Of a stretch of 64,000 bases of DNA, positions 209 through 10,882 are shown in pieces. The DNA comes from Clostridium sp. Lineage in GTDB: Bacteria; Bacillota; Clostridia; Clostridiales; Clostridiaceae. The stretch spans positions 46,222-110,221 of the forward strand of contig JALFQD010000409.1 in the NCBI GenBank assembly GCA_022785265.1, in the 5' to 3' direction. Within the stretch, counting starts at the first letter, position 1. Each line of letters opens with the position of its first letter. Made by a program: the position numbers and the translations under genes. The notes beneath the pieces are model-generated. The model did no database searches. It worked only from the letters and a program-made list of their open reading frames with translations, and was not told the DNA's origin.

Positions 209-799
209 ATGGCTTAGAAAAACTATCCAAATCGAGATTATGATTTCGATGCGAATAATTTTAATGATATATTTAAAAGGCTTGAGAAACTGCGCGCGGC
301 TCACTATGCGGGCAATGATGCTGGATCTACAGCTCGAGCGCAACTCGGCACTCCCTTTAAGACTGAGATTGTTTCAGCGCAAACAGTCGGTGAAGGTGAA
401 AGTACAAGCAATACAGAAAGCCCCCATAATTTATTAAAAAATTATTTACTTAAATTACAAACAAGTGCTTTTTTATCTGATAAGATAAGCAAAGACGATA
501 TATATAATTTAGAAATACCACTTGCTGATGATTTAATTAATGCTAATGAATATGATAATGTTATTGATATGATAAACAAAATGGAAGGAGAGCCTTCCGC
601 TTATACTAATCATCACGCGGGATATAGTCCAGCTTATACATGTAATGCACATGACAATAGTGCAAATTATAATGATGAACGTTATCAAAATAATCAAACC
701 ATAAGAAACACAGAATGTGTTGGTACTGGAAAGTGGTATTCAGATTTTCTTTTTCCTAATGGAAAACATAGCTGTACTTGGGGAGTAGATTACTCATAA
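209..799 (+). CDS. precursor-like protein A1 (cassette A); one in-frame TAG at 215-217
   Basis: ATG at 209; reading through the TAG at codon 3 gives 196 aa. N-terminal part (FKRLEKLRAAHYAG) is paralogous to 7249-7872 (FSRLEQLRRAHYEG). C-terminus is Tyr/Asn/Cys-rich with YTN, YSP, YTC, YND motifs. The track ORF 569-799 is its C-terminal fragment. Confidence 0.7.
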
Positions 800-2062
800 A
801 TGATTTTAAGTTTAATAACATCTAATTCATGTAATCAAAAATGTTCATATTGTTATTTACATAAAAATCCTGCTTATCAAGAACAAGATAAAATTCTTTT
901 ATAGTCATTAGAAGATGGTAGTTTTTTCAATAATATTATAAATACTATTCATTCTTTACACTATGATGTAAAAGATTTTGATACTCTTGATTTCTGGGGC
1001 GGAGAGCCTACTTTATATTTTAATAAAGAAGAATCTTTAATTGATCATATACTGTATAATTTCCCAAATATAAATAAAATTTCATATTCAACAAATTTTT
1101 CTACCTTTGACCAACAAATAGATTTTATTAAGTTTTTTAACAATTATGTCCGACATTTAAATCTATCCATTCAGATTTCTTATGATGGAATATTTAATAA
1201 AATCACTCGTGGTATTGATTCAATAGAGATAAAAGAAAATCTTAAACGCTTTATTCTTGCTTTAAATAAAATGTGTTTAAACAATTTAACCATATCAATT
1301 AATTTAAAAGCAACATTGCCTTGGGCATTTTATCTTTAGCTTTGTACTGATGTAGAAAAATATCAAGAATATTTAAAACACATCCAAGATTTAAGCACAT
1401 TTTTTGAAACTTTTTCACTCAATAAAAATGTCTTGTTACGCATTGAAAACTCTATGATTTATCCTACCACGACCTCTCCCACTCATTATACACAAGAGGA
1501 TGGTAGACAATTTGCGCTTGGGGCTTATAGTCTATATTTACATGGTTTGCCCAATATTCCTTTGTGTTTAGTGGAAAAATCTTTTACTAATCCCTCTAAT
1601 TATTGCGGCCATATGACAAGACAACTTTTGTTTAAATATGATGGCACCTTGGCGCCTTGTCCCGCCGGATTTATGGATGATAATGAGGCCAATCTTGAAT
1701 GGTTAAAAGAAAATGACCCAGAAGAATATAAACAATTATTAAAAAGTAAATATCTTAGCAAAGAACATGATTACATTATAAAATATGTGGCACAAGACCT
1801 CAGAATATCGGAATTGACTTTTATTATGAGTCAAATGTATGATTTGGCGCAAGCTGGCCTAATTTCTCCCATATACAAAGATAATGAGGCCGTGAGGTTC
1901 CGGCATGCGCAATATCTTATTAACCTTCACGCATGTTATTATTGGAATTTACGCACCACTGGCTCTATGTTTACCTTTTGGAATGATAATATAAAATTAT
2001 TTTGCAATGGATTATTTGAATTTTATGATTGGATAAAAGATAATGGAACAATATCAAATTGA
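800..2062 (+). CDS. radical SAM enzyme A2 (cassette A); in-frame TAGs at 902 and 1337
   Basis: CNQKCSYC (Cx3Cx2C) near the N-terminus and FWGGEPTL motif. Full-length paralog of 7878-9224 once the two TAGs are read as sense; the TAG at 902 aligns with Glu in paralog 40154. The track ORF 1433-2062 is the C-terminal fragment. Confidence 0.8.
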
Positions 2063-3440
2063 AAATAATAAGCTATTAACTTCTTTTATAGAAAGACATT
2101 ATTATAATGATCCAAATAAAGGAATTGAGTTATTTATTCGCGCAAAATGTCCATCCAATTGTGTTTATTGTTATTTCAAAAAACATGGGTGCGAATTATA
2201 TCCAGAAGATAAGCAAACTGATGAACAGATATTAAACAATTTAGGTATTTTCTTAGATTATTATATTAAAAAACAATTCATAAAAGATATCTCATTATTT
2301 TCTGGTGAATTTATTATTGATGGTTTATTTAGTAAAATAATGCAAATTTTTTATGATAAATTTGCTAATCAATATTATAAGCCTCGCGCAATAATAATTT
2401 CTGATGATGGTGATTTTATTGCCTATCCTGAAAAAATCCAAGAGGTAGAAGATTGGATGGCGCGATTGGATTCAATAGGTATAAAATTGCATTTTAGTTT
2501 ATCAGTTGATGGAAAATATATGGATATTAATCGTTCTCGCGGCCAGCGCGACGATACATATTATAAAACTCTTATTGATTTTTGTGATAAGCATTTTTTT
2601 GCATTTCACCCAATGGTAAGCGCTTTTAACATCGATAAATGGATTGATAATTATAACTGGTGGAAAAGTGTCCTTGATGATTTTCAATTTTCGCGCCTTA
2701 TGCTGCTTGAAGTGCGCGATGACAATTGGACAAATGACAAAATTCAAGAATACTTAAAATTCTTAAATTATATCATTGAAGATAATTTTAAAAACCGCTA
2801 TCATGGTAATCATGAGCTAATGGCGCAAAGAATTACTAATCAATTATATTATACTACAGCTTCATATGATCCACTTACTATTCCCTGCTTCTTGGATGAA
2901 GCGGGTCGCGATTATTTTGGCATGTGTTGCACCATTAAAACCAATTTATGTGTGCGTTTGGGTGACCTTGCGATCGTACCTTGTCATCGCACCGCATATC
3001 CACAATTTGTCAACGGGCATTTTGAAGTAATTAATGGGAAAATTAAAGGTATAGTTTGTGAGAATTACGAAATTCTTTCAGCTATTGGATCGTGGAATCG
3101 CAATAGCGCACCTCGATGTAATTCCTGTAAAATAAAGCAATGGTGTCATGGAGGATGCCTTGGTTCTAATTTTGAATCAACTCATGAATTATTTATTCCT
3201 CCAAAAACGGTTTGTAATTTTATGCAAGCTAAATATAAGTTCTTGATAATGAAATATGAAAATATGGGCTTAATGCCTTATATTAAGAATCATTTATCAG
3301 CATTTCAATATAAATATATTGAAGATTATATGGACACATTATCTAAAGAGGTTTTAATATATGGAAGACTTTTATCAGATAGAATCAATGATGCGCAATA
3401 TCAAGGAAAATCTATCAAACAATTCAGCAACCTTAGTTAA
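2043..3440 (+). CDS. radical SAM/SPASM-like enzyme A3
   Basis: CPSNCVYC radical SAM motif. C-terminal Cys-rich region (CCTIK...CHRTAYP...CNSCKIKQWCHGGC). Paralog of 9190-10671 and 41786-43171. Confidence 0.8.
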   Translation: MEQYQIENNKLLTSFIERHYYNDPNKGIELFIRAKCPSNCVYCYFKKHGCELYPEDKQTDEQILNNLGIFLDYYIKKQFIKDISLFSGEFIIDGLFSKIMQIFYDKFANQYYKPRAIIISDDGDFIAYPEKIQEVEDWMARLDSIGIKLHFSLSVDGKYMDINRSRGQRDDTYYKTLIDFCDKHFFAFHPMVSAFNIDKWIDNYNWWKSVLDDFQFSRLMLLEVRDDNWTNDKIQEYLKFLNYIIEDNFKNRYHGNHELMAQRITNQLYYTTASYDPLTIPCFLDEAGRDYFGMCCTIKTNLCVRLGDLAIVPCHRTAYPQFVNGHFEVINGKIKGIVCENYEILSAIGSWNRNSAPRCNSCKIKQWCHGGCLGSNFESTHELFIPPKTVCNFMQAKYKFLIMKYENMGLMPYIKNHLSAFQYKYIEDYMDTLSKEVLIYGRLLSDRINDAQYQGKSIKQFSNLS

Positions 3441-9224: not shown

Positions 9225-10671
9225 AATATTAACTTACTTAAATTCAAATCAACAAGAGAGAGACGTTTTATTAAATAGTTTTCTTGAAAGATATTTTTAT
9301 CAAAATTTTCGTGATGGAGAAAAGCCAGCTGCTTATCGTGCAGTTGAACTTTTTATTAAGGGAAATTGTCCAAATAATTGTGCTTATTGTTATTTAAAGC
9401 GCCATGGAAAAGAATTATATCCAATTAATGAACAGTCCAATGAACAAATATTAAAAAATATTAAAATCTTTTTGGACTTTTATAAAAAGCAACATTTTAG
9501 AACAGAATTTTCTTTATTTTCATCAGATTTATTTAAAGATGGTTTTATTTATGATGTATTAGATGTTTTTTATGAAGAGTTTAAAGATAAATATAATCCT
9601 TACCGTCCTATCAGTATTATGATCCCAGACCACGGAAATTTTCTTTATTCCCAAGAAGAAACTGATAAATTACAGGCTTATATTGATAAATTTTTTGATA
9701 TTAATTTACGCCTTATAATAAGTTTATCAATAGATGGAAAATTTATGGATCAAAATCGTGGTGATGCTTCGCGTACTGATGAATTTTACCAGCGAGCAAT
9801 AGATTTTGCTTCTAAAAACTTTTATGCATTTCATCCAATGGTAAGCGCCATTAATATTGATAAATGGATTGACAATTATGATTGGTGGCATAGTAATGAA
9901 GTTCCTGCTCATCTTGCTGATCGCTTAATGATGCTAGAAGTGCGTGATGATAATTGGACTCCAAAAGCACTTAATGATTATCTTAAATTTTTAAATCATG
10001 TTATTGATGAAGAGTTTGCGCGTGGAAATTATGATAAAGCTTTATTCGCAAAACGTGTTATAGGTAGTGATAAATATCCTGGAAAAGGATATGATAACGT
10101 TCTTCTTATACACACTCTTAATCCAGTAACAGAGTGCGATTTTGCAAGTACGGGATGTTCTGTTGCAAAAAACTTATGCGTAAGAGTCGGTGACTTAGCT
10201 ATTGTACCTTGTCATAGGACTTCTTATGAACAATATGTAATAGGTAATTATGTAGTAGAAAATAATGAAATTGTTAATGTAAAATGCAAAAATTGGGAAA
10301 TTGCTTCAGCGATTTATTCTTGGAATCGTAACAGTTTTCCTCAATGTCCCGATTGCGCAATTCGATATTGGTGTGTTGGTCCTTGTTTTGGGTCAAACTT
10401 TGAGTCTACTGGAGATTTATTCTGGACACCAATTTCAGTTTGCAATTTGTTTAAAGCAAAAACTAATTTTCAATTTATGAAATATGAAATAATGGGTTTA
10501 ATGCCATATATTGAAAAAGAGTTGAATGATGCAAATGCTTGGGAAAAAATTAAAAAACATATGGAAAAAATGAAAGGACAATTTGATAATTGTGGAGAAT
10601 TGCTCATAGATAAAATCTCAGATACAATTAGACATCAAAAGAATGCAGGAGACGTTAAGTTATTCTCCTAA
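9190..10671 (+). CDS. radical SAM/SPASM-like enzyme B3
   Basis: CPNNCAYC motif. Cys-rich C-terminus (CHRTSYEQY, CPDCAIRYWCVGPC). Confidence 0.8.
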   Translation: MDWENIMNSEDKILTYLNSNQQERDVLLNSFLERYFYQNFRDGEKPAAYRAVELFIKGNCPNNCAYCYLKRHGKELYPINEQSNEQILKNIKIFLDFYKKQHFRTEFSLFSSDLFKDGFIYDVLDVFYEEFKDKYNPYRPISIMIPDHGNFLYSQEETDKLQAYIDKFFDINLRLIISLSIDGKFMDQNRGDASRTDEFYQRAIDFASKNFYAFHPMVSAINIDKWIDNYDWWHSNEVPAHLADRLMMLEVRDDNWTPKALNDYLKFLNHVIDEEFARGNYDKALFAKRVIGSDKYPGKGYDNVLLIHTLNPVTECDFASTGCSVAKNLCVRVGDLAIVPCHRTSYEQYVIGNYVVENNEIVNVKCKNWEIASAIYSWNRNSFPQCPDCAIRYWCVGPCFGSNFESTGDLFWTPISVCNLFKAKTNFQFMKYEIMGLMPYIEKELNDANAWEKIKKHMEKMKGQFDNCGELLIDKISDTIRHQKNAGDVKLFS

Positions 10672-10882
10672 TTTCGAAGAAAATATTGCAATGATTTATG
10701 CATTAAAAAAATATTGTTCTTCTGATGATGAAGTAGAAAAATTAATTGATTGTTATATAAATATAGTATATAATAATTATATAGAAAAAAAGAAACTTGA
10801 AGCAACTCATTGCCCTTCCTTTTATTATATATCAGATTCTCAATATAATGAAGGGATAATGAATAAACTATTAAAAATGTAA
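10643..10882 (+). CDS. small conserved protein B4 (KYCSSDD)
   Basis: Paralog of 3361-3606. Confidence 0.5.
   Translation: MQETLSYSPNFEENIAMIYALKKYCSSDDEVEKLIDCYINIVYNNYIEKKKLEATHCPSFYYISDSQYNEGIMNKLLKM

Follow-up and report, generated by a model that had tools for sequence, protein, structure and literature searches.

Repeat-tailed proteins encoded beside two radical SAM enzymes in a stop-recoded phage: three cassettes of a probable maturation system

A stretch of 64,000 nucleotides assigned to Clostridium sp. (GenBank assembly GCA_022785265.1, contig JALFQD010000409.1, positions 46,222 to 110,221; the whole stretch is called the window here) belongs to a phage and carries three versions, cassettes A, B and C, of one gene module. 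In each of them a substrate-like protein with a helical N-terminal domain and a repetitive tail (A1, B1, C1) is encoded beside two different radical S-adenosylmethionine (SAM) enzymes, one with a twitch-like C-terminal region (A2, B2, C2) and one with a SPASM domain (A3, B3, C3). Each cassette probably constitutes a post-translational maturation system complete in itself, similar in its working to a radical SAM pathway for peptides that are made on the ribosome and modified after translation (RiPPs). At the loci examined (~20, diverged), the twitch-type and SPASM-type genes are always adjacent and a gene for a repeat-tailed protein lies beside them. The conserved head, the hypervariable tail and the strict gene order, as judged from sequence, fit an enzyme-substrate relationship of the RiPP type. 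The first-pass annotation of the window had proposed RiPP biosynthesis; the precursor-like architecture and the gene order conserved over ~20 loci speak for this proposal, whereas the cassettes show no conserved machinery for leader removal or release.

Cassettes, gene order and radical SAM enzymes

The first-pass annotation had placed two four-gene cassettes at 209-3606 and 7249-10882. Cassette A is interrupted by stop codons in the standard code, in-frame translation identified every such stop as TAG, and once TAG is read through the coordinates of both cassettes are exact and their genes intact (Table 1). The motifs quoted for these proteins were all found, i.e., FWGGEPTL in A2, PCHRT(A/S)Y in A3 and B3, KYC(D/S)(D/S) in A4 and B4, and two copies of NFSGHN in B1; the counterpart of FWGGEPTL in B2 reads FWGAETSL. 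A third copy had been described as lying inside an intron: a third, more diverged copy is present at 38500-43171, but the intron has no Rfam match. A3 and B3 share 45% identity (E = 2e-146), A2 and B2 34% (E = 7e-85) and A1 and B1 33% (E = 2e-18), the latter limited to the N-terminal ~125 aa, and cassette C is recognised through A3/C3 (E = 2e-67) and A2/C2 (E = 3e-22). The divergence runs in parallel across the cassette, with A and B closer to each other than A to C or B to C for every gene, as expected from duplication of the whole module followed by joint divergence.

Related loci, numbered here with the prefix L, came in part from an IMG/VR search that started from the SPASM enzyme and yielded 15 loci. 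The substrate-like gene is located upstream of both enzymes in the three window cassettes and in L003, L004, L007, L008, L012, L015, L016, L019-L024 and L026; in L013 and L014 it stands between them. Searches begun at two distant substrates, one of them fused to a Hint domain, gave the same gene order. The SPASM-type enzyme search returned 138 homologous clusters (90% identity), none of them named and almost all from metagenome assemblies, on contigs of up to 207 kb. A back-translated pattern scan for further loci from the twitch-enzyme alignment gave nothing, this alignment being without a suitable conserved stretch.

The assignment of A2/B2 and A3/B3 to the radical SAM enzymes, made in the first pass, is borne out by an invariant CX3CX2C motif in both families and by Pfam and NCBIfam matches. 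Members of this superfamily bind their cluster through CX3CX2C, close to the N-terminal end of a partial TIM barrel, and SAM through a GGE-type motif. A2 exceeds the cutoff of PF04055 (E = 1.4e-9, 38.8 bits, cutoff 29.5), A3, B2, B3 and C2 match it under the cutoff (E = 8e-6 to 2e-3) and C3 does so only with E = 0.021. The SPASM signature, CX9-15GX4C ... CX2CX5CX3C ... C, binds two auxiliary [4Fe-4S] clusters, and A3 and B3, which had been called SPASM-like, both contain a complete seven-Cys SPASM signature. In B3 these are C323, C341, C386, C389, C395, C399 and C418, all invariant among nine diverged SPASM-type sequences. The invariant set of this family thus comprises CX3CX2C, CX2CX5CX3C and flanking Cys residues, with a first SPASM element that reads C-x10-G-x6-C instead of ending in GX4C; the scores for TIGR04085 (SPASM) lie just under the cutoff of 27 bits (A3 25.5, B3 26.2). 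A twitch domain is a truncated SPASM domain with a single auxiliary cluster and without CX2CX5CX3C. In the twitch-type family CX3CX2C and W-G-x-E are invariant and only three more Cys residues are (B2 C290, C308 and C414); the C-terminal element of A2, C-x12-G-x4-C, has the look of a twitch domain, and NF033640 reaches 38.5 bits (cutoff 170).

Searches of the PDB with single enzyme sequences gave noise only, so that family profiles were needed. The SPASM-type profile found CteB (5wgg, E = 6.9e-8), 8vpo and SkfB, with BtrN among the weak matches, and the twitch-type profile found anSME best (4k36, 2.7e-6), followed by the triceptide synthase ChlB (9gm3, 7.7e-5), SkfB and CteB. Neither enzyme falls into a family that modifies cofactors or nucleotides, and on sequence criteria both are placed in the SPASM/twitch group of peptide- and protein-modifying enzymes, outside every described family. 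The closer comparisons of the first pass, with cyclophane and thioether formation, anSME and QhpD, found no support in the family models, where the enzymes score far under every cutoff. The cyclophane-synthase models gave 26.8 bits for YhhB (cutoff 445), 21.2 for GrrM/OscB (310), 20.0 for XyeB (450), 20.4 for AmcB (425) and 14.2 for FxsB (370), the anSME model TIGR03942 gave 33.3 (349), QhpD 18 (453, weak tail matches), and HxsB and HxsC were weak at 19-23 bits (268-370). The sulfatase motif C/S-x-P/A-x-R is absent from A1, B1 and C1.

Substrate-like proteins and accessory proteins

The shared helical N-terminus noticed in the first pass is reproduced by an AlphaFold model of B1, in which residues 8-120 form a helical bundle with a predicted local distance difference test score (pLDDT) of ~95 and residues 124-207 are disordered (pLDDT <50). 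A profile of the N-terminal ~119 residues, run against 1.84 billion proteins, recovered 83 representative clusters (50% identity), nearly all of 100-340 aa, with the domain at the N-terminus and a repeat tail behind it. Two long proteins with multiple matches in this search, P0209 and P0216, were excluded as seemingly unrelated repetitive or coiled-coil proteins. A1 has a near-identical cluster (P0156) and B1 no more than 11 close cluster relatives, all unnamed; P0006, a protein of 201 aa from a 1 kb contig, is identical to B1 over its first 86 residues and unrelated in the remainder, and is probably an assembly chimera. The head is an orphan domain of ~115 aa: Pfam, NCBIfam and PHROG yielded no match for it, and its fold has no significant counterpart in the PDB (best E = 1.5) or in a set of predicted viral structures (best E = 2.0). 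It also lacks a conserved stretch of 7-10 residues, and back-translated pattern scans for substrate loci failed.

The tails are short tandem repeats that differ wholly among relatives (NFSGHN, NF(S/T)S, HFSS, GFNS, NYS/NYN, (Q/R)YG(S/T), SSY(R/K) and others). The aromatic-X-X repeats described in the first pass hold for tails of the A/B type (n = 65), which have a median aromatic content of 23% and in which aromatic spacings of 3-4 residues make up 50% of all spacings compared with 24% in shuffled tails, a significant enrichment; they do not hold for C-type tails, which have few aromatic residues. The latter (cassette C, L004, L007, L008, L016, L020 and L024) are rich in Asn, Ser, Thr and Gly, contain some Cys and often show a period of five, xSNGx. 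Among close relatives the tails are under purifying selection, with ratios of nonsynonymous to synonymous polymorphism (pN/pS) of 0.29 for B1 (against L002) and 0.05-0.12 for C1, and this constraint indicates that the reading frame is real. N-x-S/T sequons were considered as a common tail feature and dropped as a general rule: they are enriched only in some tails (B1, 6 observed and 1.8 expected; L015, 19 and 8.6) and not in A1, L007 and L012. Four substrate clusters (P0169, P0171, P0203 and P0224) end in a Hint/intein-type domain right after the repeats, as does the substrate at L022 7001-8002, and only 5-9 residues follow the Hint domain in such members. By this arrangement the C-terminus of the tail is probably autoprocessed in those members, and the fusion suggests autoproteolytic release or activation of the tail C-terminus.

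At the loci examined, the SPASM gene is followed by one for a small protein (77-114 aa), and these proteins sort into three sequence groups. A direct comparison of A4 with B4 gives no match (E = 0.075); the two are linked through the homolog L003_9295 (E = 1.7e-8 to A4, 9e-7 to B4), and A4, B4, L003_9295 and L012_9409 form one sequence group. A4 was not called by the gene callers behind L035 and L036. The first pass had suggested that A4 and B4 resemble the RiPP recognition element (RRE), a PqqD-like winged-helix domain of ~85 aa that is either discrete or part of the maturase, and this was not upheld: an initial Pfam scan (E <= 0.1) and a scan of six family members (E <= 10) turned up no PqqD/RRE family, and the family profile gave only chance-level matches among PDB sequences (E >= 0.28).

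Around cassette B the conserved unit is 6129-12348, wider than the 7249-10882 of the first pass. It includes g6129, whose homologs adjoin the cassette in L003 and L012 and which is a probable accessory gene; g6848, which has no family assignment and stands at a position where most A/B-type loci encode small proteins, PHROG searches giving no family for these upstream proteins; g11776, with a homolog inside the L003 cassette; and B5, with homologs within the cassette in L003, flanking it in L012 and L015, and in L019 and L021. No genes comparable to these extras lie upstream of cassette A in the relative examined. B5 is assigned to the U32 family because 14 of the 20 members of its own family match PF01136 (Peptidase_U32; best E = 2.4e-9) and because its AlphaFold model (pLDDT 91.7, predicted template modelling score 0.90) best matches the U32 protein Mk0906 in the PDB (5d88, E = 1e-6, TM score 0.64 normalised to the target). 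C190-x3-C194 and C231 are conserved in B5, and C55 and C99 are nearly invariant. Chorismate mutase makes prephenate, and a chorismate mutase is encoded near the U32-like genes of L019 and L021. The U32 proteins UbiU/UbiV, TrhP and RlhA are Fe-S proteins that have been proposed to act as O2-independent aromatic-ring hydroxylases with prephenate as oxygen donor (PMC10990095). By analogy, B5 is a candidate O2-independent hydroxylase or other tailoring enzyme.

Further potential tailoring genes accompany the enzyme pair elsewhere. A YcaO gene is present in L016, L020, L021 and L022, a ThiF/E1-like gene and glycosyltransferases of family 8 (GT8) in L019, family 2 glycosyltransferases (GT2) in L007 and L024, and Methyltransf_21 together with a third radical SAM gene in L022 and L023. 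Fusions of a radical SAM and a GT2 domain (~680 aa) are encoded at L019 1992-4034 and L021 517-2541; their neighbours are cassettes, GT8, ThiF and YcaO genes, a Na/sulfate-type symporter and chorismate mutase. The window contains no homologs of YcaO, ThiF, a glycosyltransferase or chorismate mutase.

A proposed maturation pathway and its alternatives

In the proposed pathway the N-terminal domain would serve as the constant handle that is recognised by the cognate enzymes, the ~80 aa protein may share in this recognition, and the repeat tail would be the variable part that receives the modification. Both enzymes would use a [4Fe-4S] cluster and SAM to form a 5'-deoxyadenosyl radical that abstracts a hydrogen at each repeat, the twitch-type enzyme with one auxiliary cluster and the SPASM-type enzyme with a full domain and two, and would install repeated side-chain cross-links or related modifications. 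For tails of the A/B type, a series of aromatic-to-side-chain (cyclophane-type) cross-links would be the most likely product, a guess by analogy that appears reasonable for these tails and is inapplicable to the C type, for which (xSNGx, Cys) some other C-C, C-S or C-O linkage may be formed. In cassette B the U32-family enzyme may hydroxylate aromatic rings without O2, and anaerobic hydroxylation of the tail aromatics by B5 is, on the analogy with its relatives, an attractive idea. In related loci the product would be diversified by YcaO, glycosyltransferases, a methyltransferase, the third radical SAM enzyme and C-terminal Hint autoprocessing. Owing to the in-frame TAG codons, translation depends on the suppressor tRNA of the phage, and this suggests that the cassettes are expressed together with other TAG-containing genes.

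Several observations weigh against such a pathway. The enzyme-substrate relationship is drawn from gene order, and the N-terminal domain is unlike any known leader or other known fold. The cassettes have no conserved leader peptidase, exporter or double-glycine site. An RRE signal is lacking for A4 and B4 both in Pfam and in the profile search of PDB sequences, and there is no room for a fused RRE, as CX3CX2C starts at enzyme residues 11-60, with 10-59 residues before it. The enzymes fall short of all curated NCBIfam maturase models by an order of magnitude, and with scores so far below all family cutoffs no specific chemistry can be assigned and the bond type is a guess. Aromatic residues make up only 6-14% of C-type tails, which show no aromatic periodicity, and some loci have fibre-like or head-decoration-like genes as neighbours. 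For the hydroxylation step, B5 itself has no direct match in Pfam or another family, and no chorismate mutase homolog was found in the window. Taken together, the lack of a conserved peptidase, exporter or cleavage motif, the lack of an RRE and the folded head of 115 aa imply that the product may stay an intact modified protein.

The alternative named in the first pass, modified phage structural proteins, would make the repeat-tailed proteins components of the virion or its surface, such as whiskers, fibre tips, decoration proteins or adhesives. The N-terminal domain would then anchor to the particle and the radical SAM enzymes would harden or functionalise the exposed, host-facing tail, the product being an intact structural protein and not a RiPP-like effector. 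Receptor-binding proteins likewise pair a conserved N-terminus with a hypervariable C-terminus, neither a leader peptidase nor an exporter is present, and the substrates carry in-frame TAG just as the genes at 43727-44659 (endolysin-like; by inspection we take its product to be peptidoglycan-binding-like) and 35399-36517 do. Some neighbourhoods point the same way: a PHROG match to head-decoration/virion-structural proteins upstream in L008, a neighbour in L012 with the tail-fibre-type motif GLMSAEDKNKLD, fibre-like neighbours in L004, L012 and L026, small proteins of the type '...LWIDT..KYY.GS.W' in L004, L008 and L026, and a Laminin_G_3 protein in L022. The fold and PHROG searches that left the head an orphan (best E = 1.5 and 2.0) gave it no structural counterpart, however, the window cassettes are surrounded by tRNA genes and by DUF5662, zinc-ribbon and replication-type genes with no recognisable structural module, and L016, L019 and L021 are without structural neighbours. 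On balance a virion role appears unlikely, at a level that still deserves attention.

Two further explanations detach the enzymes from the tails. The enzymes could have another target, be it RNA or DNA of the host or the phage, a cofactor or a small molecule, with the repeat protein as scaffold, chaperone or unrelated passenger; they do stand outside all curated peptide-maturase families, the small-molecule twitch enzyme BtrN is among the weak profile matches, and U32 relatives act on RNA and quinones (PMC10990095). The strict adjacency and co-divergence over ~20 loci argue against this, as do the strongest profile matches, which are to peptide and protein modifiers, the co-occurring YcaO, Hint and glycosyltransferase genes, which point to a polypeptide substrate, and the disordered, repeat-rich tail, which suits a polypeptide-modifying enzyme, so that this explanation is improbable. 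It is very improbable that the tails work unmodified as self-associating low-complexity domains forming a condensate or gel, with the radical SAM pair being regulatory or incidental. Their composition (S, N, F, G, Y, T) and motifs ((Q/R)YG(S/T), NFS/FG) are, as we presume, similar to known self-associating low-complexity sequences, but the constant adjacency of two Fe-S radical enzymes and of tailoring enzymes would be left unexplained.

Returning to the maturation pathway, a more far-reaching and quite unlikely version of it describes, in place of conventional secreted RiPPs, 'protein-scale RiPPs' of large stop-recoded gut phages, in which the repeat tails would be turned into a densely cross-linked, protease-resistant material, an adhesive or an effector. 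Low-complexity tails of Tyr, Phe, Asn, Ser and Gly would be made alongside other TAG-containing genes and processed by strictly anaerobic chemistry, i.e., by the radical SAM pair and, in variants, by prephenate-dependent U32 hydroxylation of aromatic side chains, backbone chemistry by YcaO and glycosylation. Mobility of the module as a whole would also be part of this version, three copies being present in one genome and one of them within a self-splicing intron-like element.

Carrier phages, neighbouring genes and relation to known systems

That the DNA is carried by a phage, as stated in the first pass, is supported by window proteins 96-99% identical to those of IMG/VR contigs of 162-176 kb. 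The base composition is ~30% G+C, all sizeable genes lie on the + strand, and the large genes have their matches in families of phages (topoisomerase II, NAD-dependent ligase, DnaB-like helicase, primase and RNA ligase). Gene calling with TAA and TGA as sole stops resulted in 74 non-overlapping genes. The partial TAG recoding noted in the first pass is confirmed by 38 in-frame TAG codons in 18 of these genes, by gene ends that are always TAA or TGA and by a tRNA with the anticodon CTA. The possibility that this suppressor tRNA is a copy of the phage tRNA-Gln was dropped, as it has no special similarity to it; in translations, Gln was assumed as the amino acid at TAG.

Table 1. Genes, tRNAs and other elements of the window, in order of position (positions are counted from the first nucleotide of the window)
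Feature	Position	Strand	Remarks
A1, substrate-like protein	209-799	+	196 aa, 1 TAG (codon 3); helical N-domain, Tyr/His/Asn-rich tail from ~131
A2, radical SAM, twitch-like C-terminal Cys set	800-2062	+	420 aa, 2 in-frame TAG
A3, radical SAM/SPASM	2043-3440	+	465 aa
A4, small helical-looking protein	3361-3606	+	81 aa; overlaps A3 3' end by 80 nt
tRNA-Ser(TGA)	3680-3769		directly after cassette A
LWIDT-type small protein	4776-5021		diverged copy; members elsewhere at L004 5393-5671, L008 5354-5551, L026 4817-5593
g6129	6129-6851	+	240 aa, IDHHHD motif; PF12640 (UPF0489, arginase/deacetylase-like) E = 2.8e-4, under cutoff
g6848	6848-7246	+	132 aa, directly upstream of B1
B1, substrate-like protein	7249-7872	+	207 aa, 1 TAG; N-domain ~8-120, Phe/Ser-rich repeat tail
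B2, twitch-type radical SAM	7878-9224	+	448 aa; phrog_1802 'radical SAM domain-containing protein' E = 1.4e-8
B3, radical SAM/SPASM	9190-10671	+	493 aa; TIGR04085 26.2 bits
B4, small protein of the A4 family	10643-10882	+	79 aa
B5, U32-family alpha/beta-barrel protein	10895-11800	+	301 aa, divergent
g11776, Cys-containing protein	11776-12348	+	190 aa, 3 TAG; homolog L003_9609-10169, E = 7e-18
Cluster of five tRNAs	16680-17893		
Suppressor tRNA, anticodon CTA	22477-22551	+	needed for translating A1, A2, B1, C1, C2
LWIDT-type small protein	34963-35391		second diverged copy
PhoH-like gene, exons	37378-38244 and ~43240-43668	+	
Insert with cassette C, ~5 kb	38245-43240	+	3' boundary approximate; splits the PhoH-like gene
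C1, C-type substrate-like protein	38500-39132	+	210 aa, 1 TAG; Ser/Thr/Asn-rich tail
Cx1, Cx2, small open reading frames between C1 and C2	39144-39904	+	148, 105 aa; conserved in L009, L011; no Pfam match
C2, twitch-type radical SAM	40154-41479	+	441 aa, 1 TAG; PF04055 E = 7.9e-6
Cx3, open reading frame between C2 and C3	41486-41776	+	96 aa
C3, radical SAM/SPASM	41786-43171	+	461 aa; no small protein after C3

The system is so far found only in large phage-like contigs. A set of representative genomes from 185,579 species of bacteria and archaea contained only three full-length relatives (30-34% identity), all on contigs of metagenome-assembled genomes (154.6 kb in a Lachnospiraceae bin, 50 kb in an Oscillospiraceae bin, and 6 kb). 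The 154.6 kb and 50 kb contigs encode a substrate-like gene and the enzyme pair, the enzyme pair was read on the 6 kb contig, and all three are most likely phage contigs. DNA and protein searches of GenBank phages with the system gave no match, and the literature held no relevant precedent for a phage radical SAM/SPASM RiPP system. TAG-recoded carriers are the window phage, L005, L020 and L024, and L022 is TGA-recoded, with in-frame TGA where relatives have Trp; the L015 enzymes were seen to be fragmented when only TAG is read through. From the in-frame TGA in L022 and the fragmentation in L015 it follows that the system spans phages with different recoded stops. Between cassettes A and B (5113-5973) a protein of 286 aa starts with a signal peptide/lipobox-like sequence and ends in LPQTG and a membrane anchor, features by which it is predicted to be a phage-encoded, cell-wall-anchored protein of the Gram-positive type; the Lachnospiraceae and Oscillospiraceae bins, as a hint to the host, agree with it.

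Cassette C sits in an insert that splits a PhoH-like gene (Table 1). Its first part ends at 38244 with '...ARLG', and the reading frame continues near 43240 with '(Y)PGTRDEK...', so that the split falls within a conserved motif. The insert ends pair over a stem of ~30 bp that includes an exact 15-mer (38463-38477 and 43178-43192), and fold when joined at -89.6 kcal/mol (z = -5.3). Rfam intron models did not match around cassette C at the gathering score or at E <= 1, although a loop of ~4.9 kb bearing open reading frames would defeat such a model. An intron-like mobile element with a six-gene cargo is plausible; a cargo of several genes is unusual for an intron.

Other features of the window were recorded as well. 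The region 12001-16000 is an island of 38-44% G+C (genome ~30%) with several small genes and no or few in-frame TAG codons, and may have been acquired from elsewhere. A protein of 290 aa (29646-30518) matches phrog_200 ('lipoprotein') and is followed by one of 814 aa (30779-33223) without a PHROG match; by eye we take the former to be SPFH/band-7-like and the latter to be major-vault-protein-like, an odd pair for a phage. The small proteins listed as LWIDT-type share a C-terminal theme (approximately '...LWIDT...KYY.GS.W...VWG') and often stand beside C-type cassettes and fibre-like genes.

Among the closest known systems are the triceptide (three-residue cyclophane) pathways. The triceptide cross-link joins an aromatic ring to a C-beta, with a change of -2 Da per motif. 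The class is defined by aromatic-X-X motifs in the precursor (PMC11499958). Like these pathways (XyeB, GrrM/OscB, FxsB, YhhB, ChlB), the cassettes combine a SPASM/twitch-type radical SAM enzyme with an aromatic-X-X-repeat protein, the aromatic spacing of 3-4 in A/B-type tails is shared, and ChlB is among the best twitch-type profile matches. Unlike them, the phage cassettes score 12-27 bits against cutoffs of 310-450, encode two different radical SAM enzymes and a folded orphan 'leader' of ~115 aa, are phage-borne, and include C-type tails without aromatic motifs. Two dedicated radical SAM enzymes and a substrate with short tandem repeats are also found in the His-Xaa-Ser system (HxsA, HxsB, HxsC), from which the cassettes differ in the repeats, in the large folded N-terminal domain, in the phage context and in that no HxsD equivalent was identified. 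With long-leader RiPPs (the NHLP/Nif11-leader proteusins and relatives) and with YcaO-modified repeat precursors such as heterocycloanthracins the cassettes have in common a long conserved leader-like region before a hypervariable low-complexity core, radical SAM genes and, in some relatives, YcaO; they differ in that the N-terminal domain resembles none of the structures and families searched, in sequence or in fold, and that a double-glycine site, a C39 peptidase and an ABC exporter are absent from the cassettes. As for anSME (sulfatase maturation) and QhpD (thioether cross-links in QhpC), the substrate would be a whole protein, not a short peptide, and would remain part of a functional protein once modified, whereas the phage substrates lack the sulfatase motif, have few Cys in A/B tails and offer a tandem repeat instead of a single site, and the model scores are 33 against 349 and 18 against 453. 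B5 is comparable to UbiU/UbiV, TrhP and RlhA in the PF01136 matches of its family, in its fold match to 5d88 and in the anaerobic gut setting, and has conserved Cys residues; it is very divergent, and with a protein as substrate it would be a novelty in this family.

If the enzyme-substrate relationship holds, the cassettes represent a sizeable unannotated family of radical SAM maturation systems, with at least 138 enzyme clusters and 83 substrate clusters, whose range seems limited to large phages of anaerobic gut Clostridia. The gain for RiPP and radical SAM enzymology would be a recognition domain of a new kind, new repeat substrates and probably a new cross-link chemistry, and possibly the first protein substrate of U32-type anaerobic hydroxylases. 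As the cassettes are compact and self-contained, the system is directly testable. For phage biology it raises the question why a phage devotes ~15 kb to three cassettes and ties their translation to its own suppressor tRNA.

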